The notes under the pieces were generated by a model. That model searched no databases. It was given only the letters and a program-made list of their open reading frames with translations, and was not told the origin of the DNA. A DNA stretch of 63,632 nt, counting the filler, from Nemertoderma westbladi (lineage: Eukaryota; Animalia; Xenacoelomorpha), in NCBI GenBank assembly GCA_032718475.1. It is 3 parts of 3 records of this genome, joined end to end, with 100 filler letters (N's around TTAATTAATTAA, not from the genome) between each part and the next. Parts side by side here need not be neighbours in the genome. Positions count along the whole stretch, not along the records: positions 29,339 to 57,958 come from JAUCBJ010004808.1; 2 more parts are not named here. One strand, given 5' to 3'. Of this stretch, positions 19,301 to 54,330 are shown piece by piece. Within the stretch, counting starts at the first letter, position 1. Each line of letters begins with the position of its first letter. A program made the position numbers and the translations under genes.

Positions 19301-21268
19301 TCCAGCTCTTGTGGGTAATCACCATGTTACTAATCCAGCCTCTGGCTGAGCTGGAGGGCAGTGGCCCTGAAATTACTCCTTCCCTCTTCAATTCTTCCAG
19401 ATGTTCCCGAAAGAGTTCCTTGTATTGGAGCGCGATGGGCCTCTGCTTCTGTTGGACTGGGCGGATGCTCTTGTCCACCTCTATATGGACCGGTTCCACA
19501 TTGGCTCGGCCCAGCCCTTGGAACAACTCCTCGTGGCCCTTTAGAATCTCCCGGATTTTGCGGTCTATCTCAGCCTGGGTCCGTCCCCCAGACACCATTT
19601 CTTCTGTTGTAACAGGCTGTTTCAATTCCGTGTTCAGCTGCCCTACACCTTCCACTTTGGCGTTACCATCCGGGTTGATAGAGATAATACCCAGCAACTC
19701 GCTGTCTTTCAGCCCCAGCAGAGACTGCGTCTCCCCGGCAACCACGTACACTATAGTATGTATCTGGGCTCCACACGCTGCTGTCAACTGGCACTTGGTT
19801 CGTCCTATAATAGGAAGTTTCAACTTCGTACCGAACGGCGATAATTTTGTGTAGTTCTTCTTCAGTTTAATCCTGGATTCGCCTGTTTTGGTTTTTACCT
19901 TCGCCCAATCTGCCTCGCTAAGCAGAGTTTTATTGACCCCGCTGTCTATGAGGAGTTCCACTGTTGCCCGCTCCGAGGCTCTACCATGGTCCAACGCTAC
20001 CAGCCCGACCACCGCCCGTTGGCTGCCGCCTCCCTTTACCGCCCGGACACTCTCAGCCGGCTGCTCGGCGACCAACCCAACCGATTCGCTGTCGGTATCG
20101 CTCCCACACTCCTCGTCCAGCGCCAGAGTTCGCTCCCTCCGCGGTTTAACCTTCCGCTCCCCGGTGCAGGCTGTGGAATTCTTAAAATGACCCCACTTCC
20201 CACAAGCGAAACATTCAACCCTCTTCCCGGGACAACGTCCTTCCTCGTGTGTGGGGCGGGTGCAGGTGCGACAGGTGTACTCCTTGGATCTCCCACCGCT
20301 CGGTTTACCGGACCTTCCGGGATCCGCACGCAGCTGCCGGACCTGGTCCTCCAGCGCCGCTACTCGGGTATCTTCCCTCCTCGAGGCGTTCCCCCGGATC
20401 TCATCCACCTTCCGGGCTCCCTGTTCGAGCGCTAAACCGAACTTAATCGTGTCGTCGAAACTCAAGTCCTCCGCGATCACCTTCCGCTGGAGCTTCTTGT
20501 CGCCAGTTTGGTACAATATCGCGTCTCGCGCCGCCGCCCTCGCCCCGTATCCGGCCCAAACACACCGATCAGCTTGCTCCTTTACTTTGGGGAACCATTG
20601 CGCGAAATGCTGTCCTCCCTGGGGCATCTGCTGAAAGAGCTTAAACCGCGCGGTCGCCTGGTTCGTCTGCCGCTTTATACCCTCCTCCACCTTGGCTACC
20701 GCCGCCTCGAATGTGTCCTCCTGGTCGACGCCGCCCACGTGGTCGAGAAGATTCTTCATCTCGTCACCGCCGACCAACCGAAGCGTCGCCTTGGCCTTCT
20801 TACAGCCCGGGCAATCGGCTCCATGTCCCTCATCGTGGACTCCGTCAGCCTCCGTCGCGGTGAGAAACTACTGGAAATTCGAGATGTACTTTGTGTAGTC
20901 CTGGAACAATTGCTCCGGGTCGCCTGGGTTCTTTATCACAAAAGGGGCGGGTTTGAGCATCAACATCATCTCCGCCATCGTATCCAAGTCAGGCTTTATC
21001 AGAATATCAATATTATATTGGGTTCTATTCACGACTCGTCGCCATATAAAAGCTATGATATCCGAATAAAATCAGTTTCTTAGTTCAATAGAATTAAACC
21101 GAAAGCCTGACTCTAACATAATAATTAGGGTACCGGTATGTTCCTATAACAGTATATTTATATCTGTCACAATAATTAGGGTACCGGTATGTTCCTATAA
21201 CAGTATGTTTATATATGTCCCTTAGGGTACCGGTATGTTCCTATAACAGTATGTTTATATCTGTCACA
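16389..21268 (-). mobile_element. Full-length Ty3/Gypsy LTR retrotransposon (Mag-like)
   Basis: 224-bp LTRs 16389-16612 and 21045-21268, identical by eye; ATCTC target duplication; PBS TGGCGACGAG at 21044-21035; purine tract AGGAGAAGG beside the 3' LTR. Confidence 0.97.
16629..20978 (-). CDS. Gypsy Gag-Pol polyprotein (one in-frame TAG near the N-terminus)
   Basis: ATG 20978 in frame with ORF 16629-20777, TAG at 20868-70. Double zinc knuckle (CRTC..H..C, CFACGKWGH), protease LIDSGV, RT (VDLNHAFHQF, QIKDDIVV), RNase H (VDHEPL, ADYGSR), integrase (HEGHPG..CSAC, DFKG, DNG, ERF). Confidence 0.93.
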
Positions 21269-23037
21269 ATCTCCCAGGTTCCCTCCCCTATATCCCCCAG
21301 GTTCCCTCCCGTATATCTCCCAGGTTCCCTCCCCTATATCTCCCCTATATCTCCCAGGTTCCCTCCCCTATATCTCCCAGGTTCCCTCCCCTATATCTCC
21401 CAGGTTCCCTCCCCTATATCCCCCAGGTTCCCTCCCGTATATCTCCCAGGTTCCCTCAGCTATATCTCCCAGGTTCCCTCCCCTATATCTCCCAGGTTCC
21501 CTCCCCTATATCTCCCAGGTTCCCTCCCCTATATCTCCCAGGTTCCCTCCCCTATATCTCCCAGGTTCCCTCCCCTATATCCCCCAGGTTCCCTCCCGTA
21601 TATCTCCCAGGTTCCCTCCCCTATATCTCCCAGGTTCCCTCCCCTATATCTCCCCTATATCTCCCAGGTTCCCTCCCCTATATCTCCCAGGTTCCCTCCC
21701 CTATATCTCCCAGGTTCCCTCCCCTATATCCCCCAGGTTCCCTCCCGTATATCTCCCAGGTTCCCTCAGCTATATCTCCCAGGTTCCCTCCCCTATATCT
21801 CCCAGGTTCCCTCCCCTATATCTCCCAGGTTCCCTCCCCTATATCTCCCAGGTTCCCTCCCCTATATCTCCCAGGTTCCCTCCCCTATATCTCCCAGGTT
21901 CCCTCCCCTATATCTCCCAGGTTCCCTCCCCTATATCTCCCAGGTTCCCTCCCCTATATCTCCCAGGTTCCCTCCCCTATATCTCCCAGGTTCCCTCCCC
22001 TATATCACCCAGGTTCCCTCCCGTATATCTCCCAGGTTCCCTCCCCTATATCTCCCAGGTTCCCTCCCCTATATCTCCCAGGTTCCCTCCCCTATATCAC
22101 CCAGGTTCCCTCCCCTATATCTCCCAGGTTCCCTCCCCTATATCACCCAGGTTCCCTCCCGTATATCTCCCAGGTTCCCTCCCCTATATCTCCCCTATAT
22201 CTCCCAGGTTCCCTCCCCTATATCTCCCCTATATCTCCCAGGTTCCCTCCCCTATATCTCCCAGGTTCCCTCCCCTATATCTCCCAGGTTCCCTCCCCTA
22301 TATCTCCCAGGTTCCCTCCCCTATATCTCCCAGGTTCCCTCCCCTATATCTCCCAGGTTCCCTCCCCTATATCTCCCAGGTTCCCTCCCCTATATCACCC
22401 AGGTTCCCTCCCGTATATCTCCCAGGTTCCCTCCCCTATATCTCCCAGGTTCCCTCCCCTATATCTCCCAGGTTCCCTCCCCTATATCACCCAGGTTCCC
22501 TCCCCTATATCTCCCAGGTTCCCTCCCCTATATCACCCAGGTTCCCTCCCGTATATCTCCCAGGTTCCCTCCCCTATATCTCCCCTATATCTCCCAGGTT
22601 CCCTCCCCTATATCTCCCCTATATCTCCCAGGTTCCCTCCCCTATATCTCCCAGGTCCCCTCCCCTATATCTCCCCTATATCTCCCAGGTTCCCTCCCCT
22701 ATATTTCCCAGGTTCCCTCCCCTATATCTCCCAGGTTCCCTCCCCTATATCTCTCAGGTTCCCTCCCCTATATCTCCCAGGTTACCTCCCCTATATCTCA
22801 CAGGTTTCCTCCCCTATATCTCCCAGGTTCCCTCCCCGTATATCTCCCAGGTTCCCTCCCCTATATCTCCCAGGTTCCCTCCCCTATATCTCCCAGGTTC
22901 CCTCCCCTATATCCCCCAGGTTCCCTCCCCGTATATCTCCCAGGTTCCCTCCCCTAAATCTCCCAGGTTCCCTCCCCTATATCTCCCAGGTTCCCTCCCC
23001 TATATCTCCCCTATATCTCACAGGTTCCCTCCCCTAT
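21269..23037 (+). repeat. 23-bp satellite, right part (about 77 units), last unit runs into the kinase exon
   Basis: Same unit resumes after the Gypsy element; final copy is cacAG|GTTCCCTCCCCTAT-CCAAAG. Confidence 0.98.
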
Positions 23038-23789: not shown

Positions 23790-24380
23790 CAAATGATATC
23801 TTGAGGAGCAACACGCACTAGGTATCACCTGGAATCGGCTCACAGACAATCTAGAATACGAATTCCTACACTCAGACGCAGACATCCACACGAAACGAGC
23901 GTACGTGTCGTACATAACAAGAATATACGACCCATTCGGACTTGTGGCACCTATAACTATTGAGAACAACTATTGGAAAACATGGAAAACAACTCTTGAG
24001 AGAACTATACAAGTTCTGAAGTGGATGGGATAAACCGATTACAGACGACACTAACACTATGCAGCATAGGAAAGATCACAATGCTGCGGGTTTATTTTCA
24101 GGAAGGTGATACTGTATGTCAAACATAGAACTATGTATTTTCAGACGTCTCACTCCAGGTGCATGAAGCCCCACTGTATTTAGTTAATCCTACAGACTTA
24201 ATATACCACAGCTCTTCTTGGTATAAGATAAGAAAGCTGGTAGCCTACTTCCAAGCATTCAGATTATTCTTAAAAGGAAAGAAAGATAATAATACTTTCT
24301 TTTATTTCCATAACTCAAATGCAAAGCATATACTCAAAGCAAAGATAGCTTTCTTTGAATGCTTTAAGTCAAATGGTTAT
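23790..24380 (+). mobile_element. Decayed BEL/Pao pol fragment
   Basis: Translates ALGITWNRLTD...TKRAYVSYITRIYDPFGLVAP and SSSWYKIRKLVAY, BEL RT-RNaseH region motifs, with stops and frameshifts. Confidence 0.8.
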
Positions 24381-29481: not shown

Positions 29482-30390
29482 TGTAAAAGCTTTTGCGGAC
29501 ATAACAAGTCATTTTTACGCAATGCGCTGAATACTCTAAAAAGGCCTAAAAGTGTTCAACTACGCGTCGGTCAGAAATTAGAACCAAGATGACTAAATCT
29601 GTCAGCTGATTCTTTGTGTACGTGGAGGTTTCTTTGTTTGGGCCTATTCAGCCAATCAGAGCAATCTTCCCAGCTATGCCAATAGAGACCTACCTGTGGA
29701 AATTGGCGCATGCGCAGTTATTGTTTTTCTGAGAATCCGATTCCTTTCAGGATTCTGTACTAAGTACAGACGTTTCAGACTTTGGCCCACGAACATCTGA
29801 GGGCTGGAGTTATAAGAACGTAAATCTATTAACTTAACACACATCTTAACATTGCATACGAACTTAACTTATTTCATACTTATCATACCGAACTTCATGA
29901 ACACATGCTGACTGTTCACCGCACGGTCTTAATGCTGTTTTATATTGTTGTTAATTGCTGTTTATATTAATGGATGTTATATTTGGAGAATACCGATAAA
30001 TAATCGTAAACCCCTCAACTTTCTTAATTACTGAGGTAAGCAGAAGGGTCTACCGGTAGCAACTGCGACTCAAATTATAGTGGTTTTGTGTGAATTAAAT
30101 GCTATTTCATAATCCCTACGTGTGTCAGTTGCAATCCTCCTTATATATGATCAAATTCAGTGACGGTCGGCAATTTAGTATGAATCAGTGTGAAGTCGTG
30201 TGAAGGTTAATAAAGCATCTCCTAAAGAATGCGCTATTTACGAGATTCCATAGCCACCTAGTTGTGATTAGTGTAAGTCATAACTCTGTTTTATACTTAA
30301 AGCGCCACGTCCCAAAGGAACTGTTAATATTTCCCCGAAAGTAAATATAGTTGTCGGAGATTATATAGTAGTGATCAATCTAATAATACA
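29482..30390 (+). mobile_element. Diverged solo or truncated LTR related to the 32733-44971 element
   Basis: Starts TGTAAAAGCTT; colinear shared blocks GCCAATCAGAGC, GACGGTCGGCAA, CCTAAAGAATGCGC, AGCGCCACGTCC-AAAGGAACTGTTAATATTTCCC, GATCAATC-AATAATACA. Confidence 0.8.
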
Positions 30391-30405
30391 ATACAGTCTA
30401 GAACA

Positions 30406-32732
30406 ATGAAAGCTCCTATTGAGCTCTCCAACTCTTATGGCGAACTGGACTACGAAACGAAATTAACTGCACAGCTGACACAGCAAAATGAGTTACTTCA
30501 ACGATTGCTGAAGGAAACAAAGAAGTCCACACAACATACAAAACAAGGACGATCATGAAGAGGTTGATATCAAAATAGTGCAGGTCTCGGGGCTACCTCC
30601 CAACTCCAGCAGTGTTTCTCTCTCCCAATATTGTTACAAACAGACTGGAATCAGACCGATTAATGTTTGGATAAAAGGCACTAGAGGACAAATAAAGCAA
30701 GCAAAAATAACTATCCCTGCCAACGCCCTCCATATCTATACAAACAGAACTATGTGGCCTGGCCCAAATGTGAAAGCAAGAGAATTTAAATCAGACTATC
30801 GAACGGGGCCGACTAACTTCTATAAAAAACCTGAACATAACACCTATACATTCACTCCCTTGACTCCTACATCAACGGCTCAACAAAACTATCGTGATAG
30901 ACCTAGAGAATACAGGCCTACTGGTAGAACAATCAATAGCAATAACCATTACAACCAAAATCAAGCCAACCGATGGGAGACACGCCAAAACCATTGGGAC
31001 AGAAATCAAGATAATACTAATCTGGAAAGACATCAAGGCTATTCCCATAGAGGGGCTTCCCCAAACCAATGGCATCACCCACGCTCTTACGCGTCAAACT
31101 ATTTTTAAGAATATAAAATACAAACAACTATACACAGGTCCTCAACAATCACCAATATTGAAACAACAAGAACTGATTAAGGGGAGAAGTAACACAATAC
31201 CTTCCAAAGAACAACAACTGGATGTAATATCACTAAACTGTAGGGGGTATCTACATAATAAACTCTATAAACAAGATTATTGATGAAAACTCCCCTCACG
31301 TACTTATTCTTCAAGAGTCCTGGTTAGGCCCCAGAGAAGCCGAATTCTATCTAAAGGATTCCAAACCTCACACTAACTATGATTGCATATATTCAACATC
31401 TCATATGCTAATAAATGGCAATAAGAGGCGAGGAGAAGGTGGAATGATAATATTTATCCATAAGGATTTACTTCCTTACTGCAACGAAATTGAGACAAAG
31501 TCAGATAGGATCATGGCGCTTCACATAAAGAATCACCCCTATATTGGGGATATGGGCATAGTGGGGCTGTACATGCCAGCAAACTGCAACAGATACGATG
31601 ACTCTTCAAAGTACTCCTATACCTGTGGAAAATTATTGGTACTAATACAGGAACTCATTGCCTCGGGATCAAAGGTATTAGTTGCGGGCGATATCAATGG
31701 TAGCCTAGGATCCAAAAACAAAAGTTGGCAAACCAAACTGACTCACTTTGGCAAAATTTTTAATGAAAATATTACGGACCAACTCAAAATGCATATATCA
31801 GACCTAGATGAATCTGCAACTGGACCACTCAAGACGTATCGTATGAAAAATAGAATCAGGGAAGAAATTAATTCATCTTACATTGATCACTGCCTAGTAA
31901 CTCAGGACCTTATTGATCAGACAAGCTCTTGCATGGTATTTGAAGAAGAACCGTGTAATCTGTCAGACCATGTCCCCGTTTCAATAGGATTTCACTTTAA
32001 TAGGTTACACTGTAGCTTACCTCCTATTCCAACAAAAAGGAGCAAGTTACCGATCTTCCACTTTGACAAAGCCACCTCAGAGCAACGAAACAAATACCGT
32101 AGCGAGATTGACAAAGTCCTCAGCGAATCCAATATATCAAATGGAAAATGTTCAACTGATCCCAAGGAAGCTACTGGTATCCTTGAAATCACCTCAAAGT
32201 GTATCCTCCAGGCGGCGAAAAGGCATATCCCAATTACATACAACAATAAATGCTCTAAAAAACCAAGAAATCCTTCCCAAACCCTGAAAAAAGATACTAC
32301 CACTACACCATCTACTACAGGATACCTAAAAGATGTCTATGATAAGGCAAGAGTAGCATGGATATCCAATGGCGAAATACACAATCCCAGCAATAAGCAT
32401 TTCATGGAATATAAACTGGCGAGCCATGCATATCATGATGCACTATCCAAAATAGACAGAAGCAAATACCTCCAACATATTTCAAATTTAGCGGACCAAT
32501 GTCGAGGTAATGACAAGCGTTTTTGGAGATCGGTGAAACAAAGAGGTAACCAATCTGAGGTAACTAACGCCACGGCAACAAGTTTGGTTGATCATTACAG
32601 CCAGCATTTCAAGTCAACATCTACAAACTCACCAGGAAATACTAAGGATCAATAATATGATGAAGAGTACGAACCAATCTTGACAATAGATGTAAACGCA
32701 CCCCTACTAGATTCCTGTAGCATCGAAGATGC
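30406..32732 (+). mobile_element. RTE-X-like LINE, 5' part (ORF1 remnant and APE endonuclease), degenerate
   Basis: ORF1-type WPGPNVKAREF; APE motifs SLNCRG, LILQESWL, GEGGMIIF, AGDING, IDHCLV, NLSDHVPV; frameshifts and a TAA at 32653. Confidence 0.88.
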
Positions 32733-34024
32733 TGTAAAAGCTTCTGTGGGATATAACTGGCCCTTTTGCTTCGCAATCCAGTTTCCCCCCAGGCGCTGGA
32801 ATACTCTAAAAGGCTCTCTAACTATATATATATTCCCCTCGCCCGCAAGGTACCGTTATAGGTGTTTTAACGGACATAAAAGTCATTCTTCTATATACGT
32901 GCTTTGGTGGACATGGTAAGGCAAAAAACCCGCAATGCACCAAATACCTTTACACAGCTTAGCCTTGATGATTCAGATTACGACATCTAACAGCTGGTTG
33001 CTGACATGGAAACGGCCATTGGACACATGGTTCTTTGTTTAGCTTAAGCCAATCAGAGCGATTTTTTCTGTCGATGTGGAGATATTCGGCCGATCATACT
33101 AGGAGTCTTACTGTTTTTGTGATACTGTTGTGTTCCTTCTATCTAGGCCAGGAACACCGGCTCTAGAGTCAATTCGTTTCAGACTTTAGAAGAAACATTA
33201 GTAGGCTTAAGATTATAGAGCGTATAACTGTTATCGGTCCAGTCAAACAGTGTTACCATCTTAACCTACCGTCTTAATGCTATTTACTGTTGTGTTTTGG
33301 TTGAATATTATTATTTGGAGAACATCTATAAAGAACCCAAATTTCCCAATTTTCTTGATACACTACAGGTTAGAGAGACAGGCTACATATAGCGATTGCG
33401 ACTTATATTATCGTGGTTTGTAGTGAGTTTAAGGCTATTTGATAAGCACTACATGAGTCCGTTGCTGTTCTCTTTATATATGATAAAATTCATTGACGGT
33501 CGGCAAATTAGTGAGAGCAGTATTGTGTGTTACCGGTAGTGTGCCTGATTGTGACTGATAACTAAGCATTTCCTAAAGAATGCGCCTCATACGTGAATCA
33601 TAAGCCTTACCGACTTACCGTTGTGATTAGTATAAGTCATATCTCTGTTTACCTAGATAGAGCGCCACGTCCTAAAGGAACTGTTAATATTTCCCGAAAG
33701 TGAATAATATTAGTCAGAAATTATTTATTAACGATCAATCGAATAATACAGTAAGCTTACACTGCAATAATAATCTAAGCCCTCAGAATCCAGTCTCCCG
33801 GGTATATCCAGCGGGTGAATGGACGCGCACTAGGCTGGCTTCTGCTAATGTTGTGTTTATTGGTATTAAATATTTGTCAACTTCTAAAGTCTATTTGTAA
33901 ACCAAAAGACATATAAATTTTGGCAGGTTAAACTGCTAAAGGTCTTCAAAAGCGCGTACAATAACAGTTATTGTCTTTATTGCAGTAAGCAATAAAGTTG
34001 AAAGTACCGGTCGACCGGTAAACC

Positions 34025-34155
34025 TGAACCGGTACTTCTGTAGGTCAGTAGGCCCAACTGCCAGAACCGGTACTGCTGTAGGTCCGTAGGTCCAACTGTC
34101 AGAACCGGTACTTCTGTAGGTCCGTAGGCCCAACTGTCCTAACCGGTACTTCCAG
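34025..34155 (+). repeat. About 38-bp tandem repeats in the BEL leader
   Basis: AACCGGTACTTCTGTAGGTCCGTAGGCCCAACTGTC about 3.5 times. Confidence 0.8.
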
Positions 34156-35926
34156 TATAAGTACATTAGTATTATTCGATTTTAATTATTGTATACCGGT
34201 AGGTCTTAGTATTTAATCAGGGACTGCAGCCCTGGTTTTTTATTGAGATTTTACTTATTTCTGTCGGTTTTATTTACATGTAAGTTAATATTGAGCTGAA
34301 GACGTGTAAGTCTGCTCAGATTGTTCAGATAATTGTAGGCCGGACTGTTGTTAGATTATTGTTGGGTTTGGAGAGATTACGGCGTGTGTAGAGTTTGTCC
34401 GATAGAGTGCCAGTTAGTAAGTTGGGGCAGCCATAGCTGTAAGGTCAATCCCCTCTTAAAGAATAAGTCGTACTACCGTGTTAGAACGCATACTAACTAA
34501 CCATTTCGGAAACTACACGTACTGTAGTTTATTTAGGCTTGATGGTAGTCTGCCAGCATTTGGTTTGTAATTTGTTTGAGTAGTTTGTACGGGTAGCGTA
34601 ATATTTATTATTCAGAGTTTATGCGATTATTCGCAACATTCATGTCCCCAAGTTTATTCCTACAGTAATTGTGTTTGTTACACATACCGTTATAGTTAAA
34701 TTAACCCCGGTACTACACGGGCTGCTTGGCGTAGGAAAAGACTGGTGACTTTGTGCTTCGGTCACTCCAGCAGATGCCGTGGTTCTTTTAACTGTTCAAG
34801 TATATTTAACTACTGATTATTTGTTGTACCAGTACTTGTACCTAATTTAGGGTTTAGTGTACAGTGCTTTCCGAGGTAATTAGTGTGTAGGCAGTATATT
34901 TGTGTTGTAAAGTGGTTAATAGGCACGCTGGATCTGGTAGTCCGCGGTAATTAACTTCTAGGTAGGAACACTCCGTGATACATAACGTAGTACCTATAGC
35001 GATACGGTTATAGGTCGTCAGGCGGTGGTATCTTCCTATCTGGACAACGCAGTGTATTTACTACTACTTATTATTTTCAAATACCGTAGTACCCTGTCCG
35101 TTGTAATAACCAGAATTCTAACCCTTTGTTAGGCTGGTTTGTAGACTTCCTGTAAAATTACCCTAAAATTTCGTACGTAATATTTTTTGTTGTGTTTAAT
35201 TAGAGAATTAATCTCACCCGTATCGTAAGTAATTTGTAGTATTAAGTAACTTAGGTAAATTAGAATAATCTGTTTTAGTGTCCCATAAGTAGCACTCCAC
35301 TGAGAGCGCACAGCTTCCGTGTAGTGACTCTCCCCAGAAATAATAACATTTATTTCAAATATTGACAAAACCCCTTTTTAAACGGGTATATATCTATTAT
35401 AAATCAACTCAAACGATTTATAAATAGTAGGCCTGCCATACAACAACTAGGTCTCAATATCAGTTGGACTACTGCTTAAATAACGGTAATAAAGTAAGTT
35501 AAGGTAACTAAGTAACCCTAAAATATTCAAAAATTCAATTATTCTAAAATAATTGACATACCGGTATTTACCATAGGCTTATTATATTTATTTCTATAAA
35601 TTTGAGCTGAAATCATACCGGTATTCTGTAATTAAGTATCCTAGTTCATTATTCTAGTTCATAATTATACTTATATATACTATAAGTGTAAGCTGCATAC
35701 CGGTATTCACGATAGGCCTATTATATATTTATATATATTTGTGCTAAAATTATATACCGGTACTCTGTGACAAACCTAGTTTACAATACTTATATATACT
35801 ATAAGTGTATACCGGTATTCTAATATACTGTAATAAATTACCGGTACTAGGCCAACGGTCATACTGAATTACTAGACTTGCTTTAACTGTAACTATAGCA
35901 GTAAGCATTCAACTGTATAGCTAAAC

Positions 35927-38900
35927 ATGTCTGACACCCAGCAAAACCTGTCAGACAGTCTAATCGATACAACCATCTGTGACACAGATAGGAGTGTGGA
36001 GCGATTAAGAAAGGAGTTCAGCTCACCTCCTACTGAAAGAAAGGTCATCCCTCCAGTAGTAGTATCAGACCCTAAGCTAATCCAACACCGTAGGTCTATC
36101 ATCGGCACTCGGGCCCAAGTCAAACGGAACCAGGAAGCAGCTGTCCCACAGCAGCAACAGCCTAGTCAAGAAACTTGTTCCCAGCGATCCGATAGCTCCA
36201 GTAGTTCGGATACTGTCGAGCTGACCCCCGAACGCGGATTGCAGATGGCGGCTACAGCCTACTCGGACCCCCTTCTCACCCTTCCTGCCGCAGTGCTAAC
36301 TACTATATTGATTGCGGTGGAGGAACATCAAGCCCATTGGGCGAGAAGTAAGCGAGCGACCCAAGATAATTATGCGGGATACGCCAGGGAAGAATTGATG
36401 TCTATTGTCGAGTCACAATGGATCTTTCCCGGACCCGGACTCCCGCTAGATTTGTCCGAAGCTACTTGGGAAGATATACACAGGATGGGAGTGACTAAAG
36501 ATACAATGGATCCAGCTGTTTGGAAGAGGTCGGCAGCAGGATATGTGCAGGGATTCTTCGGCTCCTTGGAGCGATTAGAAGAACAACTGTTTCGACAACC
36601 TCAAGGACCTCAAGAGCAGGAAGAGCTGCTATATCAAGTACGCGAAAGAACCCTACGCATTAGATTAATCCTATCAGCCTTTGAGGAAACTTCCAAAAGA
36701 AGACAGGACACGTCGCTGCAGGTTGCTGTCAAAACTTGGTTCCAGCGGGTAGGTCTCAAAGTACAAGAAACGGACCAGTGGAAATCCCAGCTGTCTGAGA
36801 GACTAACCTATGAAGAACCAACCGATGCCACCCTTTCTCAAGTGGAAGGCGAAGAGACCGCAGAGAGACCACGAATGAGAGACGCCATCGACATATATCT
36901 GTCCGACTATCAGCGATTCCTAGGAGACGAAGAGTTGAGGAGACGGCTGTCTGGACTTTCCCCTAATAGTGAAGGAACCCAGCGTGTGTTAGACTCAATC
37001 GATGCTGAAATGTTAGCTGCTAACCAAGCTGAGTTTGATGAAAAACTCCGCCTCACTAGAGTCCAAGAAGAACTAGTAAAGAAAAAAAGGATAGAGGACC
37101 GAAAGGCAGCTGCAGTAACAGCGGCAATGGCTGAAGTGGAAGCAGAAAGAAAGGCAGCGGCGGCAGAAGTAGAAGCAGAAAGAAAGGCAGCGGCGGCAGA
37201 AGCAGAAGCAGAAAGAAAGGCAGCGGCGGCAGAAGCCGAAGCAGAAAGAAAAGCGACTGTGGCAGCAGCAAAGGCAGTGGCAGAAGCAGAACAGAGGGCG
37301 TCTGAAGAGACCACACAACTGGAGTTGGAAAATCTTCAAGAGACGCAAGATTGCATAAATAAACAGTTAACTGCTAGTCAAATGCAGATGAGGAGTCGAT
37401 CTACTCCCAAACGCCAGGGATACACATCATCGGAGGAAAGCGAAACCACCGATCCTGAAGGCGGAGGAAATAGATCTCGTCTAAGCAGGCGTAGAAAAAC
37501 ATCTCACCGTCACAAATTGCCTGATTTGCCCCCAGCTGTTAGAAGACAACTAGCTAGCACAGACTTAAGTAGTATAGAACCTACAGACCAAATTATTAAG
37601 GTCAAAAAACTCCCTACTATAGTTGATGAGCCTGAAATAATTAGGCCTGTCGTTCCCAAAGTCACTCCGGTGCTAGAGACCCCTGTACTTCCAGAGCTTA
37701 ACTCTAAGTTCCCTTTACACAGTACTACACTGCCTGTACCCGGTAGAACAGTCCATGAGAATATCCCTGTCCTGGAAGCTGAGAGAGAAATCAAAGATTT
37801 GTCTCCCGTCGTCCCGCGTCAGCCCGCTACAATGTTGGCGACTCCCGCTTCGGCGGTCGAGTGGGTAGAGGAGGGAGGGCGGGGGATGAATCTCCTGCTC
37901 GGACAGATGCAGGAGACTGTCCACCAACTTAAGGGAACAGTAAGGGAAGGTAGGGCAGAATTGCAAGAAGTGCAGCAAAGTATCGCGCTAGAACGCGACA
38001 AATTAGTCAATATACAAAATGGTATATCAATACCCCCTGTAAAATTGTGTCAACCTGTTAGGTCTGAAGTATTACATGCGCAAGGTGTGGAGCCTACACG
38101 CATCTATACTGCTAGTGAAGTAGAAACTCCTATAGCAAACCCTATTAAGGGTGATTATAGACCTGTTATTAATGATATTCCCTATAGACCTGATAATGAT
38201 CCGAGAAATTTATATACCGATAATTCGATATTAAATAACACGATGGCCCAAGAAAGCTTTACGCGTCAGATGGCTAGAACAGAAGCCCGCCAAGCGGTCA
38301 AAGTGGGAGAGATCGTCAAATTCAATGGAGATGAGATGAAATGGTTACCTTTCAATGAATATTACAAAGATAGCATACAAAACTCTGTACTATCTAACGG
38401 AGAGAAACTTAGGTTCCTCATCAAGTGCTTGGAAGGACCTCCCAGGTTAATGGCGTTAAAGTTTATTGGACATCCAGAAGGATTAAGACAAGTTTGGGAT
38501 ACATTAAACATCAGGTATGGTAACAAGGATAACATAGCTAAGTATTTGTATGCAAAATTAGTAGCCCCCCGAGACTTCCTTAGCAGCGGGATTATAGAGT
38601 TTTCCGATGAGATTCAGGAGATCTGTAGACAATTGGACTGGTTAGGTAAGTCTCATGAATATCAGAGTTCCATGGTTATTGGAGCAGTAGTCTCTACTTT
38701 ACCAAAGGGTGGAGTATGTACGCGTTGGGACAAGAAAGTGTTGTACATGAATGAACAACAACGACGAAGCCCTACCATGGCTGATCTCATGTCCTTCTTA
38801 GATGGTGAGGTAAAACTACAACTCATCAAGCAGTCCAGAGAGAAAACATCGGAAAATAAGGTAAGTGAGAAACCCGCTTCTAGGAGAAGAGTAACACCGG

Positions 38901-40585
38901 TGTGTTATACTGACGACGGCGAAAGCCAAGCTTCTCAAGAAGAGGACAGCGGGAAAGACACAGCAAAATATTACTATGACAACAAGACCTATAAAGACGT
39001 AAGTAAATATAAGTCTCGAACCAACGATAGGAGAGAACAGGTAACAACAACTCCTCCTACGTCTCCTAAGAGAATTCACGGAAGAAAGCCCGAAGAAAGA
39101 ACGAGAGTGCATAACGTTACCCAAGGTAAAGTGAGTAACATCAAACCAAAATGTGCGCTGTGCGACGGGCCCCACCGTTTGAGTGCGTGTGCTGAATTTC
39201 TAAAGAAATCCCTTGTAGACAGACGTACAGTCCTGTGGAATAAGCGGTTATGCTATAATTGCCTCAGATCAGGACACCAACGGCGAACCTGTTACTCCGA
39301 CGTAAAGTGTGCAAAGTTTGGCGCGAAACATCACATCTTGTTACACAGTGAGTTCGAACGAGACAACCCGAGTCAGGTAAGTGAGCCCGAACTACATGTC
39401 CAATTCAGTGATGTAAATGACACTGATCAAGAGTCTGAGATGGAAGGATTCTATACTGACGAATTCTCCGACGCCAACGAATCCTGTTACCTAATAAATA
39501 CCTCAGTGTATCGAGCACTTACTTATGAAAAGGACACCGACAATGAGTTCCCCCCAACTACTTTTGCCAGACAACCATCTTGGAAAGCTCCAACTTCCAA
39601 CGTAGGAATCAGAGAATTTCCTGTAGTGCAGGTAAGAGTTCACGGTCCTAACAAAAGTTACATAGTGAACGCCCTCCTTGACTCCGGCAGCACAGGAACA
39701 TTCATCGATCAAGAACTAGCCGAAGATATCTTTGCTGGACAACCCAAATTCCGGACTAAATTGAATATGTCAGGAATTATGCAGGTTTGGAAATCTACCC
39801 TAACGGCAGATTACTATGTAGGTGTGTTGTCCACCCCCCAGGATAAATTAGGAGCACAAGGTATAAGGTCGGTAAAAATGGTGGCTATAAAGAACTTCGC
39901 TACTACCCAAGCAGACCTTTATAATTGGGACGAGGATGAGAGCATCCAACATCTTAAGATACCTCGATTCCAGACAGATTATCCTGGAGTGCAAATACTC
40001 ATCGGCCAAAACGCGCATGAGGCGCTCGAGACATTGGAGAAACGGCCTGCTCAACCGCAGCCACTACAAACCTATGCGGTAAGAACTAGAGTAGGTTGGT
40101 ACTTCACTGGCCCTTCCCGTAGAACTCTCAAAGAGAGATTACCTCAACAACAGGTATACCAAGTAAAGGAATGGGAAGTGGAGAGCAGTGATGTGGACGA
40201 TCCAACTGAGGGAACACCATACTCCTCAGATAATGACGATATTAACTCCAATGTAGATCAATGGAGACATTGCCTTGGGACGATTAGTTCAGCCGACAGC
40301 GCTTCCAGAGGAGCAACTCCTCAAGAACTGATAGATACTCCAGGCTGGTTAGGTGGATCCGACTCCTTAAGTAAAGAAGAAGAAGAATGGCCTCCTCATC
40401 TTACCACGGCGGAGCGTAGACAGGCCAAGGGAGCGGAGAAAGTAACACAACAACTCAATCGCCCAGCTAGTCGTTTATGTTTACTGGAAAGAGACCGAAA
40501 ACTGTCCGGAAACTATGGAAGGCAAGATACTCTTCCTACGACCACTTCCCTAATCCGACAAATATCTAGGGACTCCATAACGTAA
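35927..40585 (+). CDS. BEL/Pao Gag-protease polyprotein with RT/RNaseH/integrase deleted
   Basis: DUF1759-like KFNGDEMKWLPF..EKLRFLIKCLEG; triple knuckle CALCDGPH/CYNCLRSGH/CAKF..HHILLH; protease LLDSGS, ILIGQN, RTRVGW; then only QWRH..ADSASRG..WP and RPASRLCLLE remnants. Confidence 0.92.
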   Translation: MSDTQQNLSDSLIDTTICDTDRSVERLRKEFSSPPTERKVIPPVVVSDPKLIQHRRSIIGTRAQVKRNQEAAVPQQQQPSQETCSQRSDSSSSSDTVELTPERGLQMAATAYSDPLLTLPAAVLTTILIAVEEHQAHWARSKRATQDNYAGYAREELMSIVESQWIFPGPGLPLDLSEATWEDIHRMGVTKDTMDPAVWKRSAAGYVQGFFGSLERLEEQLFRQPQGPQEQEELLYQVRERTLRIRLILSAFEETSKRRQDTSLQVAVKTWFQRVGLKVQETDQWKSQLSERLTYEEPTDATLSQVEGEETAERPRMRDAIDIYLSDYQRFLGDEELRRRLSGLSPNSEGTQRVLDSIDAEMLAANQAEFDEKLRLTRVQEELVKKKRIEDRKAAAVTAAMAEVEAERKAAAAEVEAERKAAAAEAEAERKAAAAEAEAERKATVAAAKAVAEAEQRASEETTQLELENLQETQDCINKQLTASQMQMRSRSTPKRQGYTSSEESETTDPEGGGNRSRLSRRRKTSHRHKLPDLPPAVRRQLASTDLSSIEPTDQIIKVKKLPTIVDEPEIIRPVVPKVTPVLETPVLPELNSKFPLHSTTLPVPGRTVHENIPVLEAEREIKDLSPVVPRQPATMLATPASAVEWVEEGGRGMNLLLGQMQETVHQLKGTVREGRAELQEVQQSIALERDKLVNIQNGISIPPVKLCQPVRSEVLHAQGVEPTRIYTASEVETPIANPIKGDYRPVINDIPYRPDNDPRNLYTDNSILNNTMAQESFTRQMARTEARQAVKVGEIVKFNGDEMKWLPFNEYYKDSIQNSVLSNGEKLRFLIKCLEGPPRLMALKFIGHPEGLRQVWDTLNIRYGNKDNIAKYLYAKLVAPRDFLSSGIIEFSDEIQEICRQLDWLGKSHEYQSSMVIGAVVSTLPKGGVCTRWDKKVLYMNEQQRRSPTMADLMSFLDGEVKLQLIKQSREKTSENKVSEKPASRRRVTPVCYTDDGESQASQEEDSGKDTAKYYYDNKTYKDVSKYKSRTNDRREQVTTTPPTSPKRIHGRKPEERTRVHNVTQGKVSNIKPKCALCDGPHRLSACAEFLKKSLVDRRTVLWNKRLCYNCLRSGHQRRTCYSDVKCAKFGAKHHILLHSEFERDNPSQVSEPELHVQFSDVNDTDQESEMEGFYTDEFSDANESCYLINTSVYRALTYEKDTDNEFPPTTFARQPSWKAPTSNVGIREFPVVQVRVHGPNKSYIVNALLDSGSTGTFIDQELAEDIFAGQPKFRTKLNMSGIMQVWKSTLTADYYVGVLSTPQDKLGAQGIRSVKMVAIKNFATTQADLYNWDEDESIQHLKIPRFQTDYPGVQILIGQNAHEALETLEKRPAQPQPLQTYAVRTRVGWYFTGPSRRTLKERLPQQQVYQVKEWEVESSDVDDPTEGTPYSSDNDDINSNVDQWRHCLGTISSADSASRGATPQELIDTPGWLGGSDSLSKEEEEWPPHLTTAERRQAKGAEKVTQQLNRPASRLCLLERDRKLSGNYGRQDTLPTTTSLIRQISRDSIT

Positions 40586-42212
40586 TAACATATGGAGTGG
40601 GCATGTGACTATATCATTTTATATTTGTTTTTATTTTATATTTATGTATGTATTATTATGTAATTTTATTATAATCGTTTCCTTTAATTTTATTTAGTAG
40701 AATGTTATTTTAGTGATTATTTAGTAGATTAGTGCAATATATTAGTGTTTATTACGTACGTAATTACTTATAATATATTTAGTGTGACGGCGAGAAATAA
40801 TTATTTTTTCTCTTTCCTTACTGTCCGTATCATATTATAAATACGTGACTACAGTAAGATGAAATGTCCGTACTTATTAAAGTACAATAAAGCTCCTACT
40901 ATACTTAAGTATTATTGGTAGGCAGAGTATTAGGAATGCAAAGTTCAGATCCTCGTGTCTCGGCTAAACCAAGCTCTGGGTAGACCTTGGAAACGACTTG
41001 CCTCTTCACACTGACATTGCTTCGTGCGATATTGCTCTTCTACCTTATATTAAATAATACATATAGTAGCGTGATGTCCCTATAACAGTAGCGTAAAACG
41101 CAAATAAATCTGTTAAACCTTTTGACCATCTGTAATTCTAGTCGATCAAGATATCGCGGCACCCACCGATATACTTGAAAGACAAATTCTAGAATCAGTG
41201 GTTAACGTCCCCAGAAAAGTTCTGGAATAAATCGGTGCCCATCTTAAATATTAATTTAATATTTAGTAAAATCTGTAAAATTCAGATCCTTTAAATTTCT
41301 AGTCAATTAAGATATCACAGCACTTACCGATACTCTTAAAGGACAATTGTCATAGAATTAAGGATCCTATGCCCCCAGACCTGCTCTGGAATCAAATTGT
41401 GTCAATTTTAACATCAAATAATAAAATTCACGGGAATAAATTTAAATTCATATTTAAATGAATTTCATAAATTGTCATTTTGTGTAATTTATAACATTCC
41501 CAAAATTCCATTAATTAATAGATCACGGGAGCGGAGATTCATCCTATTGAGTGTATTAGAGTGCGAGAATCTCCAACATATAGTCAATAGCCGATAAAAT
41601 TAATAAAATCATGTATAAAGAGGATATTGACAATTAAAGAATTACTATTAAATAGCATTCCAGATCTGTATGCATGAGAATTACCCTAATTCTACCGCTA
41701 GCTTTCCATAATGTCACCATAGCAACACCCACGCTAGAATTAGAAGCAAGTTAAAAGAACAATAGAAAGCTTGTCACATTGCATAGCATAGAGAATACAT
41801 AGCACACTGTTAGTATCCAAAGATACACAGTAATAACGTGACATTCTGGAAGGCACTGACTAACGGACAAATGGCCTGTATGTGTACAATTGGTGACAGT
41901 TGTGTGGAATTTGTGCGTTTATAGGTGAATGTTACTGCTAAAGTATGTTTACAGTAGCTAGTCGCAATTGTGAAAGTAGCCCAACTCTCCTATAGAAAGA
42001 ACCTAAAGTGGATTCAAGCCTTTGGGACGGACAGTGGAGTGACTTGTGCCGGTTATCGTTGTCGTGCTGTTGCTACATGTTGGCGTAAACACCGCGACGA
42101 CGGTACATCGGCGCTGAGAATCCCACTGTCCGGGGGCGAAGAGAGGTAGGCAGCGACGCCCGCTCGCCTAAACATAAACTCATTACAATATTAATAAACT
42201 CAGATAGCAGAT

Positions 42213-43660
42213 ATGACGGAGTTGATAGAAGATGATCTTGGTATCAGGGAGCGATATACTCTACCTTTACAAGCATTTGTGGATAGCTTGATACGCGGTG
42301 AAACCGATCCAACCATTACGGAGGACGATGGTCGTTATATCGAACCGCCGATGTCCCAAGAGCAACTTACGCGTGAATTCGACTATCGAAATTCACCGCT
42401 CGCTATACGCATCGTAATAGTGCGTATATGGACTTCCTAACTACCGGCCATCCTATCGATTTACATGATACGGACGATGTAGACACCGAAAGGGAAATGG
42501 TTCTATTTAAATATCATACCCAGCGGAGTCGTAACAATAAACCGAGAATAGATCACGAAAATTCTATTCGTAACAGACTGGGAAGACGAACCAATATGCC
42601 TAGAATCTGAGGAGATTCAGCCTATCGCGCCCGGAACAGCGACAACGATTACATCCTAGAATGGTATCAAGGTCCACAGTGTCTCACTGCGTACAATTAT
42701 CGCCATGCCAACTATGTTTCTCGGCAACGTTGTCGGTTATGCGCATCGAGAGACCATGTTACGCCCATGGACACAAACGTCCGCTGTTCCTATTTCCACG
42801 AACAACCGGCGATGGAAATTTATTGCGCGTATTGCAGACTCAATAACTTGCACATTTTTGCGGTTTGCCCTCAATTTATGACTCAATGTCACCATTGTCA
42901 ACTAAAGGGACACGCCAGTTTCGATTGCCCTTTTAATCGCGATTTGGAAAGCGTAGATGAAATGATCACACTACGTTGCATCAGAGCTTGGGAAGTGAAC
43001 GCTGATTTACATTGTGATTCGCGCCATCGCTATTATCCTGGACGCGCTTACGAAGGAATTTATGCGTTCCATCCTTATCTATTCGCTTCTGTCGAACAGA
43101 AATCACGCATATCGAGTTACGAACTACTGAAGCGCGTCGGAGAATGTATTTCAACCAAATTCGTACGCAAATTTCTCAGGAGTGTTAATCCTAGCGACCT
43201 TCATTCCTATAACTTAATCAATTATATCCGTCAGGATCCGGACTATGGAGACTTATTTGTTAACTCACACCCCGAGTTACAGGAAGTATATCGACGGCCT
43301 TACGAATACCGAGCCCGCGAACGCGAGTTGGAAAGAACCATTAAACCCCGGAGGTTTCTAACTGCCTATGGTCCACCCACGGCTCTCGTTCAGACCACTC
43401 GTAAAGGACCCGTAAGAGCGGCTGTCTTAAAACGAGCTCTCAAAGCCGTTAGACCCCTCTCCCCCGACGTTGATGTCAATCAACCCGGTACTTCGACTGG
43501 CGGATACACCGACCATAATCCTACACCCTCTGATGCAATCATATTGCACCCTTCACCCAGGAGTTATAGCCCTCCTTGTAAAGTGGCTCGCCCCAAAGAG
43601 AAAAGGACTCTGGCTAGCTTTAAAAAACTGCGTAAATGCCGTCCGCGCAAGAAAGACTAA
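42213..43660 (+). CDS. Accessory zinc-knuckle ORF of the BEL element (one frameshift, one in-frame TGA)
   Basis: 42428-43660 is one frame broken by TGA 42608-10; CRLCASRDH, CAYCRLNNLHIFAVC, CHHCQLKGHASFDC; basic C-terminus; ends 78 bp before the 3' LTR. Confidence 0.65.
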
Positions 43661-44976
43661 CTGTTTAGAGTATTTACGTATATTAGAAACTGTGATTTTG
43701 TATATTTTATAGACTCAAATCCCATTTTCTGGGAGCGGTGTAAAAGCTTCTGTGGGATATAACTGGCCCTTTTGCTTCGCAATCCAGTTTCCCCCCAGGC
43801 GCTGGAATACTCTAAAAGGCTCTCTAACTATATATATATTCCCCTCGCCCGCAAGGTACCGTTATAGGTGTTTTAACGGACATAAAAGTCATTCTTCTAT
43901 ATACGTGCTTTGGTGGACATGGTAAGGCAAAAAACCCGCAATGCACCAAATACCTTTACACAGCTTAGCCTTGATGATTCAGATTACGACATCTAACAGC
44001 TGGTTGCTGACATGGAAACGGCCATTGGACACATGGTTCTTTGTTTAGCTTAAGCCAATCAGAGCGATTTTTTCTGTCGATGTGGAGATATTCGGCCGAT
44101 CATACTAGGAGTGTTCAGTCTTACTGTTTTTGTGATACTGTTGTGTTCCTTCTATCTAGGCCAGGAACACCGGCTCTAGAGTCAATTCGTTTCAGACTTT
44201 AGAAGAAACATTAGTAGGCTTAAGATTATAGAGCGTATAACTGTTATCGGTCCAGTCAAACAGTGTTACCATCTTAACCTACCGTCTTAATGCTATTTAC
44301 TGTTGTGTTTTGGTTGAATATTATTATTTGGAGAACATCTATAAAGAACCCAAATTTCCCAATTTTCTTGATACACTACAGGTTAGAGAGACAGGCTACA
44401 TATAGCGATTGCGACTTATATTATCGTGGTTTGTAGTGAGTTTAAGGCTATTTGATAAGCACTACATGAGTCCGTTGCTGTTCTCTTTATATATGATAAA
44501 ATTCATTGACGGTCGGCAAATTAGTGAGCAGTATTGTGTGTTACCGGTAGTGTGCCTGATTGTGACTGATAACTAAGCATTTCCTAAAGAATGCGCCTCA
44601 TACGTGAATCATAAGCCTTACCGACTTACCGTTGTGATTAGTATAAGTCATATCTCTGTTTACCTAGATAGAGCGCCACGTCCTAAAGGAACTGTTAATA
44701 TTTCCCGAAAGTGAATAATATTAGTCAGAAATTATTTATTAACGATCAATCGAATAATACAGTAAGCTTACACTGCAATAATAATCTAAGCCCTCAGAAT
44801 CCAGTCTCCCGGGTATATCCAGCGGGTGAATGGACGCGCACTAGGCTGGCTTCGGCTAATGTTGTGTTTATTGGTATTAAATATTTGTCAACTTCTAAAG
44901 TCTATTTGTAAACCAAAAGACATATAAATTTTGGCAGGTTAAACTGCTAAAGGTCTTCAAAAGCGCGTACAGATGC

Positions 44977-46750
44977 CATAAAGTCTCTACACAGACAGAA
45001 GGCTCCGGATCTAAAGAACATGAAGGCGGAACACTTGTATTATGGACTGTGCGAACCTTTACTTCAGGCTATAGCCTTCATCTTCAACACCATGAGAGTT
45101 ACTGGAATCTGCCCAGACGACCTAGGGCTGGCGTTACTTATTCCAATACACAAAGGGAAAACGCTGGACAAATCAGTCGCTAAAAACTACAGGGGTGTAA
45201 CTATAATTTCCATTATAGCAAAACTGTGGGAACTGGTGGGAGAAAGAACTCTTGAACTAAAAGAACTCTTGCCTAAATTAAAGACAGATGACCTCCAAAT
45301 GGGGTTCAAAGAAAAATTAAGCACAGAAATAACTTACTTAGCAGTCATAAACATAATGCAATATTTCAACAAAAACCATTCGACAATGCATATCCTATCA
45401 CTAGACCTGAGTAATGCATTTGATACTGTGGATCACAATAAGTTATCAAAAATATTAAAGGATGCGAATGTGGAACCAAACCTAATTAATCTACTTATGT
45501 CTTATTATGGCAGCTGCAAAGCTTTCCTCCGTATTGGGGGGATTCATTACAACGGTGCTATCGATATACAGCAAGGCGTCCGCCAAGGAGGTATTATATC
45601 ACCTTTTCTATTCAATGTATATCTCACTCAACTATTTTCAGACATAATTGGCTCAAAATGTGGTGCTCATATTGGCAAACACTCCTTTAGCATAATCAGC
45701 TATGGGGACGATATAATTTTAATGGCAAACCTTAAATCGGACCTCGTGAAGATGGCGGCAATGTGCTATAATTTTTTCAAGGATCATAACCTAGTCCTCA
45801 ATATAAAGAAAACGCATTACTTGGTAATTAATGAAAATGGCACCTCCGAGGAGGACAATAGTATATATATTGCCGAACAAGATATGACCTTCATTTCTAA
45901 TACAAAGTGTACCTACCTTGTACTTCCTCTACCACCAACGAACGCTAACTTGACGGTACACTTCCAGAAGAAAACTATAATAAATTCCATAAGAATGGAA
46001 GCTGCATTGATAATGTACCGCTCCACGTCGTATCAAAAGTTTGGAATAGTATCTGTACTCCTTCCATACTATAAGGGTGTGAGTCACTGACGCGACTGTC
46101 ATCACAGTTTGTCTCTCTGCAAATCCGGAAGGCTATACTCAGAATCATCCGGGTTTCGAACTATGTACCTGATCCTGTCTTAGTGAAACTGGTTAATTCT
46201 CTTGATCCCGATACAATGATACATTTACAAATGGCTACAACTTTATATACTGCAACAATAAGAAATTACTATACTTATTTAACTTTCTATTGGGCAATCA
46301 CGTATCTGGGCAATGTAACATTACTATTTTCGAACAATATTCCGTAGCGGCCTGGCTGCACAACCTGCCAAACTTAGTCAACCTATCCGTATCTAGGTAC
46401 AAAATGAAAATTTTTAAAAAGAAGGTACATGAAGTGTCGACTAATGAAATGTCAGTAAAAAAACTCGTATAGATTATTTTTCTCACAAAGCGTACTAAAC
46501 GCAATGGTAGGTACCCACCAGGCACGCCACGCGGTGTTGCTGAATTTCTTTGGAATTGATGCCGCTGCCTAGTGGCTGTTCAGTGTTCATACTGGTTCAT
46601 TGACCTATATCGCTGATGTGCTGATTTTTCTTCATCTTTTGGCTGAATCTGAGTTTATTGTGCACTGTAGCCATAGTTAATCATGTTCTATATAACTATT
46701 TTTATAGATAAACCTATTTTAGTATTAACTATTTACTTACTTTAATAAAA
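44977..46750 (+). mobile_element. RTE-X-like LINE, 3' part (reverse transcriptase)
   Basis: AEHLYYG, NYRGVTI, QMGF, LDLSNAFDTVDH, GVRQGGIISPFLF, YGDDIIL; rejoins the 5' part in frame (IEDA|IKSL). 3' end approximate. Confidence 0.9.
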
Positions 46751-50890: not shown

Positions 50891-51310
50891 TAGCTTACTG
50901 AGCCTAAATGTTACTATTTTAATCAAAACGATTTATTTTAACGTATTTTTTGCACTACACCTTTGTACATATTATTCAAATTTTACCTATGCCAGTATAT
51001 ATATGTAGTTTAATTATTAATGACTTTAAAAAAATACTCTATTTTTCCCACTAAAACTGTGTACATAGTACAGTATGTGGCGTTAAAATATTAAATAGTA
51101 ATTTATACAGTTCTTATTTCAAATAACATATTGTTTACATTTGTACTTAAGGCAATTCAATGTATGTCATGTGTCTCGTAATTTAACTGCAAAACTCTTA
51201 GGACACTAATAAACAATATTTGAAGTAGTTCCTCGCCCTGAGCACCGTCGTATGCATAATAAAGGAAGGATGAAATGATCTTTAGGTGCCGCTGTAATTA
51301 TATTATAAAT

Positions 51311-51376
51311 GCCAAATATTTCAACCCAAAATTGTAAATGTGGACAATTACAATTAAACAGGCCTTCTTCAGTGGC
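51311..51376 (-). ncRNA. Minimal hammerhead ribozyme motif in pLTR
   Basis: GCCA-CUGAAGA-A-GGCC...GGUU-GAAA-UAUU-UGGC on the element's sense strand. Confidence 0.7.
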
Positions 51377-51684
51377 TCTGGTACCTAATGTACCTAACTA
51401 CAGAAACTCTACAACACGACCGGACCGAGCAACAGCAGAACAAATAGTACCGGTATCGTATGAAGTACTGCACATACAGTATATGTTATGTCAGAACCAA
51501 TTACTAATTACAAAGCTAGTGGACGTGTTATTAAATGCTAACTACTGTATAAATATCAAAGATCAACCGGGGTTGCTAGCTAGAATGTTGTGTACGTGTG
51601 TATTGGAAAATAAAAGAAATGCTAACTACTGTATAAATATATGAAGGAATTGCTAACTACTGTATAAATTGCACCAAGTTTAGT

Positions 51685-53476: not shown

Positions 53477-53988
53477 GGAATGGCAACCGGAAGGAGGCGA
53501 TAGGGGAACACTTCCTAGATAAACATCCAGGGTGCAAGAACTACCAGGGACCTTTCAGAATTGTTTTAAGATATAGATGCAGGGACTGGGCGGACCGGAA
53601 AATCAGGGAAAAATATCTAATCAGACGGGAAAAACCTACACTTAATCGCCAGTACAGTAGGCCCCACGACAAAGGATGGTAAACTAAACTTGGTGCAATT
53701 TATACAGTAGTTAGCAATTCCTTCATATATTTATACAGTAGTTAGCATTTCTTATTTTCCAATACACACGTACACAAAATTCTAGCTAGCAACCCCGGTT
53801 GATCTTTGATATTTATACAGTAGTTAGCATTTAATAACACGTCCACTAGCTTTGTAATTAGTAATTGGTTCTGACATAACATATACTGTATGTGCAGTAC
53901 TTCATACGATACCGGTACTATTTGTTCTGCTGTTGCTCGGTCCGGTCGTGTTGTAGGGTTTCTGTAGTTAGGTACATTAGGTACCAGA

Positions 53989-54054
53989 GCCACTGAAGAA
54001 GGCCTGTTTAATTGTAATTGTCCACATTTACAATTTTGGGTTGAAATATTTGGC
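53989..54054 (+). ncRNA. Minimal hammerhead ribozyme motif in inverted pLTR
   Basis: Mirror copy: CTGAAGA 53993-99, GAAA 54043-46, stem I GCCA/TGGC, palindromic AAATATTT stem III. Confidence 0.7.
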
Positions 54055-54330
54055 ATTTAGAATATAATTACAGCGGCACCTAAAGATCATTTCATCCTTC
54101 CTTTACTAATAAACAATACAAATACCATTGCCAACGTTTCTCCCATTCAAAATTCATATTTGTCACAGTGCCGATAAGTTACCAGGGGCGATAAAGACCC
54201 GGGAGTGATAAGTTCCCAAGGGACGATAAGGACCAGGGGCGATAAAGGCGCAAGGAGCGATAAGGCTCTACAATCGGTGATTTTCCACATTAAACCCTCC
54301 CACTCTGTTTTCCAAGTTATCATAGTTCTC

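Follow-up and report, generated by a model that had tools for sequence, protein, structure and literature searches.

A non-autonomous BEL/Pao retrotransposon of Nemertoderma westbladi that is probably primed by its own LTR

The window analysed here is a stretch of 63,632 nucleotides from Nemertoderma westbladi (assembly GCA_032718475.1) that consists of parts of three records joined end to end. At 32733–44971 it contains a recently inserted, non-autonomous derivative of a BEL/Pao retrotransposon, 12.2 kb in size. Self-comparison of the window gave two direct repeats on the + strand, a 5′ LTR of 1228 bp (32733–33960) and a 3′ LTR of 1233 bp (43739–44971), which are 99.2% identical and differ by one substitution and two indels. 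Both LTRs begin with TG and end with CA, and their limits were set from the 3′ copy and from the 5-bp target site duplication GATGC that flanks the element (left copy at 32728–32732, +; right copy at 44972–44976). A polypurine-tract-like GGGAGCGG (43731–43738, +) adjoins the 3′ LTR. The insertion splits a LINE, the endonuclease frame of which lies at 31237–32655 and the RT frame at 44951–46090. Contigs of public runs reach a depth on the LTR that is at least about 1000 times that of the flank, a ratio that is not a copy number, and this pile-up indicates that the family is very abundant. At 29482–30395 (+) there is a truncated LTR that belongs to a related subfamily and is 74% identical over the best stretch; its primer-binding site (PBS) lies outside the window.

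The main open reading frame, ORF1 (35927–40585, +; 1552 aa), encodes a BEL/Pao Gag with DUF1759, Cys-His knuckles, a protease with the motif DSGS and, downstream of the protease, a 48-codon remnant resembling the end of a BEL/Pao RNase H (40247–40390). The match to DUF1759 (PF03564) has an E-value of 2.9e-12, and PF03564 is carried by 37 of the 38 database matches of ORF1, with about 26% identity over long matches. RT, integrase and a whole RNase H were looked for in the pol of the element and are absent, the RNase H-end remnant excepted; the first-pass annotation had been silent on these losses. The near-identity of the LTRs, the DUF1759 Gag-protease and the absence of RT and integrase together identify a young non-autonomous BEL/Pao derivative. 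The ICTV profile of the Belpaoviridae describes elements of 4.2–10 kb with an 18-base PBS for tRNA-Arg or tRNA-Gly (PMC8742986). The window element shares with that family the TG…CA LTRs, the 5-bp target duplication, the DUF1759 Gag, the Cys-His knuckles, the protease and the polypurine tract, all of which bear out its initial assignment to BEL/Pao, and differs in its length, in having no tRNA PBS, in the deletion of RT and integrase and in an extra 3′ frame that has no homologues. This 349-codon frame (42611–43660, +) contains Cys/His knuckle-like motifs, is interrupted on its 5′ side and belongs to no Pfam family; none of 815 candidates proved to be a homologue. The extra coding region as a whole spans 42198–43660, the interruption lying upstream of 42611. 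In the 1.9-kb leader the motif ACCGGT recurs throughout, and an ACCGGT-rich 38-bp tandem repeat of 3.3 copies is present at 34026–34152, directly after a conserved leader hairpin.

No TGG-type PBS follows the 5′ LTR, as had been claimed in the first-pass annotation and as inspection of the LTR end confirms, and the 18-base complement of a tRNA 3′ end is thus missing. Elsewhere in the window, the LTR of a Gypsy element is directly followed by a TGG site. At the PBS position of the BEL/Pao element stands ATAACAGTTAT (33961–33971, +), and this is the exact reverse complement, over 11 of 11 bases, of ATAACTGTTAT within the LTR (33224–33234, +). The match begins at offset 0, on the first base past the terminal CA, so that this earlier observation also stands; it cannot be extended on either side, and the LTR partner is present again in the 3′ LTR at 44237. 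The complementarity between PBS and LTR that characterises Tf1-type self-priming is therefore present. Of 20,000 shuffled versions of the LTR with dinucleotides exactly preserved, 27 contain the 11-mer, a number that rises to 60 of 20,000 when offsets 0–3 are allowed and to 110 of 20,000 when either strand is allowed as well. As a control, 3,938 non-coding positions inside the element were compared with the LTR, and 4 of them match it over at least 11 bases. The caveat raised at the outset, that the 11-mer is nearly self-palindromic, is right: both sites are palindromes of the type 5+1+5, of which there are nine in the 5,188 non-coding bases of the element, and they are identical at 10 of 11 bases in direct orientation, with a central base that is complementary and not identical. 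Neither site folds on itself. ARAGORN found no tRNA within the element and Rfam only four sub-threshold matches, which argues against a tRNA primer encoded by the element.

Folding gives a mixed picture of the RNA around the two sites. A 9-bp hairpin directly after the PBS (33975–33997, +) lies within a conserved stretch and is stronger than 199 of 200 shuffles (1/200, z −3.8). The hairpin named in the first-pass annotation (33784–33844, +) does fold, at −22 kcal/mol, but it is weak, being equalled by 9 of 200 shuffles, and not conserved, as it falls in a segment (about 33760–33900) that contigs of sister subfamilies skip or replace; its placement in U5 was an assumption. Ten bases at 33761–33770 (+) are complementary to the leader at 33977–33986 (74 of 5,000 shuffles) and may form a second duplex, which would compete with the conserved hairpin at 33975–33997, and 33819–33829 pairs imperfectly with the LTR end. 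The two duplexes that would flank the PBS in a three-duplex "pretzel" are thus only partly suggested. The primer–PBS duplex itself, at −10.1 kcal/mol, is the weakest of 11 compared (others −11.9 to −17.1). Its equilibrium probability is 0.00–0.07 in folds of the full RNA of 800–900 bases, long-range folds being unreliable, and the corresponding values in related elements are 0.32–0.99 in nine of ten families and 0.01 in the tenth. Between the primer and the LTR end there are 726 bases, as against 71–203 bases in the relatives after splicing.

Two ways in which splicing could shape the primer of the window element were considered and rejected. Removal of a putative intron at 33369–33926 lifts the duplex probability to about 0.9, yet 94 of 114 GT-AG removals of similar length exceed 0.8; the intron was rejected because arbitrary removals do likewise and because both LTRs would lose it if the template were spliced. 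The best splice-built primer for 33961 has a junction match of 10 bases and a poor donor, GTTATC; it adds nothing to the contiguous match and is equalled at 6 of 40 control positions. There is no credible split primer in the LTR at 32733–33960.

Sister copies of the element were studied in short contigs of five public runs aligned to the LTR. In run X1 the summed contig depth falls from 1.38 million at 33930–33934 to 0.14 million at 33970–33974 and recovers to 0.86 million at 33995–33999, and the profile of run X3 has the same shape, so that in both runs depth collapses over 33960–33974 between two deep, conserved blocks. The list of substitutions over 33890–34024, complete at 1%, comprises seven rows and contains none in 33961–33968; 33969 T>C accounts for 27% of X1 depth. 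Among the 24 of 65 loose ends listed, several read differently over the PBS, with no case of an initial TGG. A tRNA-primed PBS is re-copied from the host tRNA and is therefore expected to be a conserved part of an element. Unlike such a site, the PBS of these sister copies is variable, which fits a primer encoded by the element or a lack of constraint. On the LTR side there is a dip in depth over 33202–33293, an indirect indication. Among the 40 LTR substitutions listed, out of 142, the expected partner of 33969 T>C at 33226 does not occur; as all of those listed reach about 40% or more in some run, a partner change could be hidden. In the truncated LTR at 29482 the primer position aligns with AAATCTATTAA, the complement of which is not among the 24 of 65 loose ends listed. 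In two loose ends from sister subfamilies pairing appears to extend upstream of 33224, a hint only, since it involves about two informative letters that cannot be assigned to a single molecule.

Self-pairing of the PBS with the LTR was also found in BEL/Pao relatives from metagenome contigs. An alignment of five polyproteins, full-length and among the closest, led to 80 metagenome loci in 50 families at 80% identity; the viral collection yielded no BEL/Pao relative. A readable 5′ LTR end at the same locus was available in 13 loci, the other 67 of 80 being left out, and L062, in which the repeat does not represent an LTR end, was excluded. The ten families analysed include one cross-locus LTR/PBS pair. 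TGG follows the LTR in none of the ten, and all ten match their own LTR over 10–15 bases, mostly after a 3-base spacer. The match is contiguous in two families (L027, the LTR of which ends in TATA, and L075); in the other eight it exists only across a predicted splice junction, with a GTAAGT or GTGAG donor and an AG acceptor 76–321 bases apart. When LTRs and PBSs were swapped between families, 3 of 110 pairs reached at least 10 bases, two of which combine families whose PBSs are almost identical, and L018 differs from L002/L003 by one change that is matched on both the PBS and the LTR side. Covariation of primer and PBS is thus seen in the relatives. Six further families with an unknown LTR end gave split matches of 11 and 13 bases in two cases and nothing above 7 in four. 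Less regular cases also occur: the acceptor of L037 is AAG and its sister L033 matches over 9 bases only, and L064 matches over 11 bases vs 13 in L073.

A PBS that matches only the exon–exon junction of a predicted LTR intron of 76–321 bp was observed in L018, L002/L003, L037, L045 and L051, and likewise in L060, L068, L073, L035 and L047. The contiguous L027 and the split L060 are sisters in a tree of Gag sequences, as loss of the intron would give. In this quick tree, from which L003, L037, L069 and L080 were left out for want of a stop-free Gag-protease piece, the self-pairing relatives fall into a clade of 26 rows (SH-aLRT 97), and the Gag-protease of the window element lies outside it on a long branch, with at most 27% identity. 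What these relatives suggest for the window element would accordingly be carried over by analogy, and the window locus taken alone is a weaker example of self-priming than they are.

Overall, the element is probably self-primed through 33224–33234 and 33961–33971, with the enzymes supplied in trans. Self-priming, the reading offered in the first-pass annotation, remains the best explanation of the lack of TGG, the exact match at offset 0, the variable PBS and the pattern in ten of ten relatives; the part of that reading that did not hold is the hairpin, which is not the conserved one. Transcription would start at or upstream of 33224, and the LTR 11-mer would fold back and pair with the PBS, with Gag presumably chaperoning the pairing across the 726-base loop. 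RNase H supplied in trans by an autonomous partner would then cut after 33234 and leave a free 3′-OH, as in Tf1, from which RT would extend the primer and copy 33960 back to 33235. Plus-strand synthesis would re-copy the PBS from the primer; both sites could in that case change in step, in agreement with the variable PBS. In the relatives the primer may be joined by splicing of the predicted LTR intron. Strong-stop DNA would there begin downstream of the acceptor, so that the intron would be inherited from the unspliced 3′ LTR. Splicing in the 3′ LTR would leave a contiguous primer, as may have happened in L027, L075 and perhaps the window element; a contiguous primer like 33224–33234 could thus derive from loss of an LTR intron or could have an independent origin. 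Whether tRNA-free priming is normal in at least two deep branches of BEL/Pao, with the primer built by the spliceosome from two LTR exons in most families and ready-made in intron-less forms, this long-branch family without pol among them, we regard as an evenly balanced question.

The start of the RNA bears directly on the self-primer. Together with T33223 the candidate primer is TATA-like, TATAACTG at 33223 being one mismatch from the TATA consensus, and in the 29482 LTR the aligned letters read TATAAGAA. No TATA is present some 30 bases upstream of 33224. Just one perfect consensus TATA box is common to the two LTR types; it lies at 33475, followed 33 bases on by a TTAGT motif that they also share, at 33508 (33475–33512, +), and offers a rival promoter position. 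If the RNA start were set by the TATA at 33223 or at 33475, the 11-mer would lie upstream of it, which counts against its use as a primer. Run X4, the RNA origin of which is a guess, has no cover over 33110–33247. A CCAAT-box-like motif, putatively functional, is shared with the 29482 LTR (33048–33060, +). The LTR block 33470–33760, which corresponds to 30140–30390, is strongly conserved between the subfamilies, is also reached by contigs from runs that bear the labels of two other organisms, and belongs to no Rfam family. A pattern scan for the conserved LTR block gave no match in viral and metagenome contigs.

An alternative is self-priming from a site further downstream, in which the RNA would start at about 33505–33510, AACTGTTA (33679–33686) would pair with 33962–33969, and the 11-mer at 33224 would be incidental U3 sequence. 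The shared TATA at 33475 and the TTAGT 33 bases on agree with such a start. The 8-base alternative partner lies in the most conserved LTR block (33660–33700, +), and 33662–33707 is the deepest bin in all four runs. Its distance to the LTR end, 274 bases, is nearer the range of the relatives, and the duplex has −8.5 kcal/mol. The pairing comprises only eight bases, however, 121 of 3,938 control positions reach 8 or more, a conserved partner would leave the variable PBS unexplained, and the 11-base match would become a separate coincidence of 1 in 200 to 1 in 700; this alternative is held to be very unlikely. Priming by an internal fragment of a tRNA (a half-molecule), with the LTR match due to chance, is about equally improbable. 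The middle of the primer at 33224–33234 may resemble an Asn anticodon loop. The PBS nevertheless varies among sister copies, an exact LTR match is improbable by chance, and no tRNA-like sequence was found in the element. The case for a fragment is that half-tRNA priming exists in some copia lineages, according to the accessible portions of PMC6317226, and that ICTV gives host tRNA as the primer of BEL/Pao (PMC8742986).

The palindrome and the hairpin that follows it could also be a structural signal, either for initiation of RNA dimers or like the Conserved Hairpin Site of GalEa, in which case the LTR match would be a TATA-like or duplicated palindrome and another primer would be used. Both sites are indeed palindromes, with a self-dimer of about −5 kcal/mol, and the 9-bp hairpin after the PBS is conserved. 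In the fungal GalEa copia elements, as described in the accessible parts of PMC5445492, a palindrome stands directly after the LTR, at the same place, with a hairpin instead of a tRNA PBS; there the palindrome, a conserved one, makes up one of the hairpin arms, and the LTR holds no complement to it. In the window element, by contrast, the palindrome varies and stands next to the hairpin, and it is matched by an exact complement in the LTR. The complementary central base also speaks against a duplicated palindrome, and the PBSs of the relatives are mostly non-palindromic and yet pair with their own LTR. A structural signal is therefore considered unlikely, and self-priming from 33224–33234 is preferred.

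Self-priming as such is a known mechanism. It has been described or predicted for Tf1/sushi, Tcn1 and TAR elements in the accessible portions of PMC6317226 and PMC4600332. In Tf1/Tf2 of Schizosaccharomyces pombe, Tj1, Tosmo and other Tf1/sushi elements, the 11 bases after the 5′ LTR are complementary to the LTR, as far as the accessible text of the sources goes (PMC7175516, PMC4600332, bioRxiv 2022.12.06.519325). The window element resembles them in having no tRNA PBS and 11 LTR-complementary bases directly after the 5′ LTR. They are Ty3/gypsy chromoviruses, whereas the window element is BEL/Pao, is non-autonomous and has a 726-base loop; in place of the gypsy-type pol with chromodomain integrase that marks Tf1/sushi it has a BEL-type Gag-protease and no integrase. 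It differs from Tf1 further in that its primer is not shown to be the 11 bases at the start of its RNA and that the flanking duplexes of its "pretzel" are only partly suggested, and the primers of the BEL/Pao relatives are split by a predicted intron. For the plant Tcn1 chromoviruses and the TAR (Houba, Osr-1) copia elements, which belong to other superfamilies and other hosts, self-priming was predicted from PBS–LTR complementarity alone, according to the portions of PMC6317226 at hand. For BEL/Pao no description was found in print in the accessible parts of the sources searched, a search that lay outside subscription journals, Repbase, Dfam and GyDB; within the same scope this agrees with the first-pass annotation, which knew of none. 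The accessible portions of PMC3601003, PMC6934838 and PMC8220671 describe no BEL/Pao self-priming, and those of PMC554778, PMC3118150 and PMC6238403 gave no mention of a PBS.

The occurrence of self-priming in BEL/Pao, a family defined as tRNA-primed, would, as far as the sources searched show, be new. If true, a mechanism shown only for Tf1 would extend to a third LTR superfamily, BEL/Pao elements of this kind would be independent of the host tRNA supply and of tRNA-fragment defences, and the failure of PBS-based annotation to detect many marine BEL/Pao elements would have an explanation. The pattern in the relatives, if true, would make splicing a required step in making a reverse-transcription primer, a link that was not found in the literature searched. 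Should tRNA-free priming be normal in two or more branches, the textbook label "tRNA-primed" would fit only part of the Belpaoviridae.

Other features of the window include further mobile elements and a dehydrogenase frame. The Gypsy element at 16389–21270 (−) has identical LTRs of 226 bp, part of which is made up of a 51-bp tandem repeat; it further has a PBS of the TGG type and a frame of 1412 codons, and is inserted in a 23-bp satellite array (7765–23010). An intronless frame for a short-chain dehydrogenase occupies 60065–61111. None of the 120 animal matches listed exceeds 48% identity to it, which indicates that the protein collection covers the host's lineage poorly; this animal stands far apart from every well-sampled lineage. 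At 51257–54108, near-perfect inverted arms of about 630 bp enclose a frame of 609 codons that matches RT weakly (E 1e-4), a layout that we guess to be Penelope-like. In addition, a short BEL/Pao RT-like fragment (E 3e-4) is present at 23800–23961.
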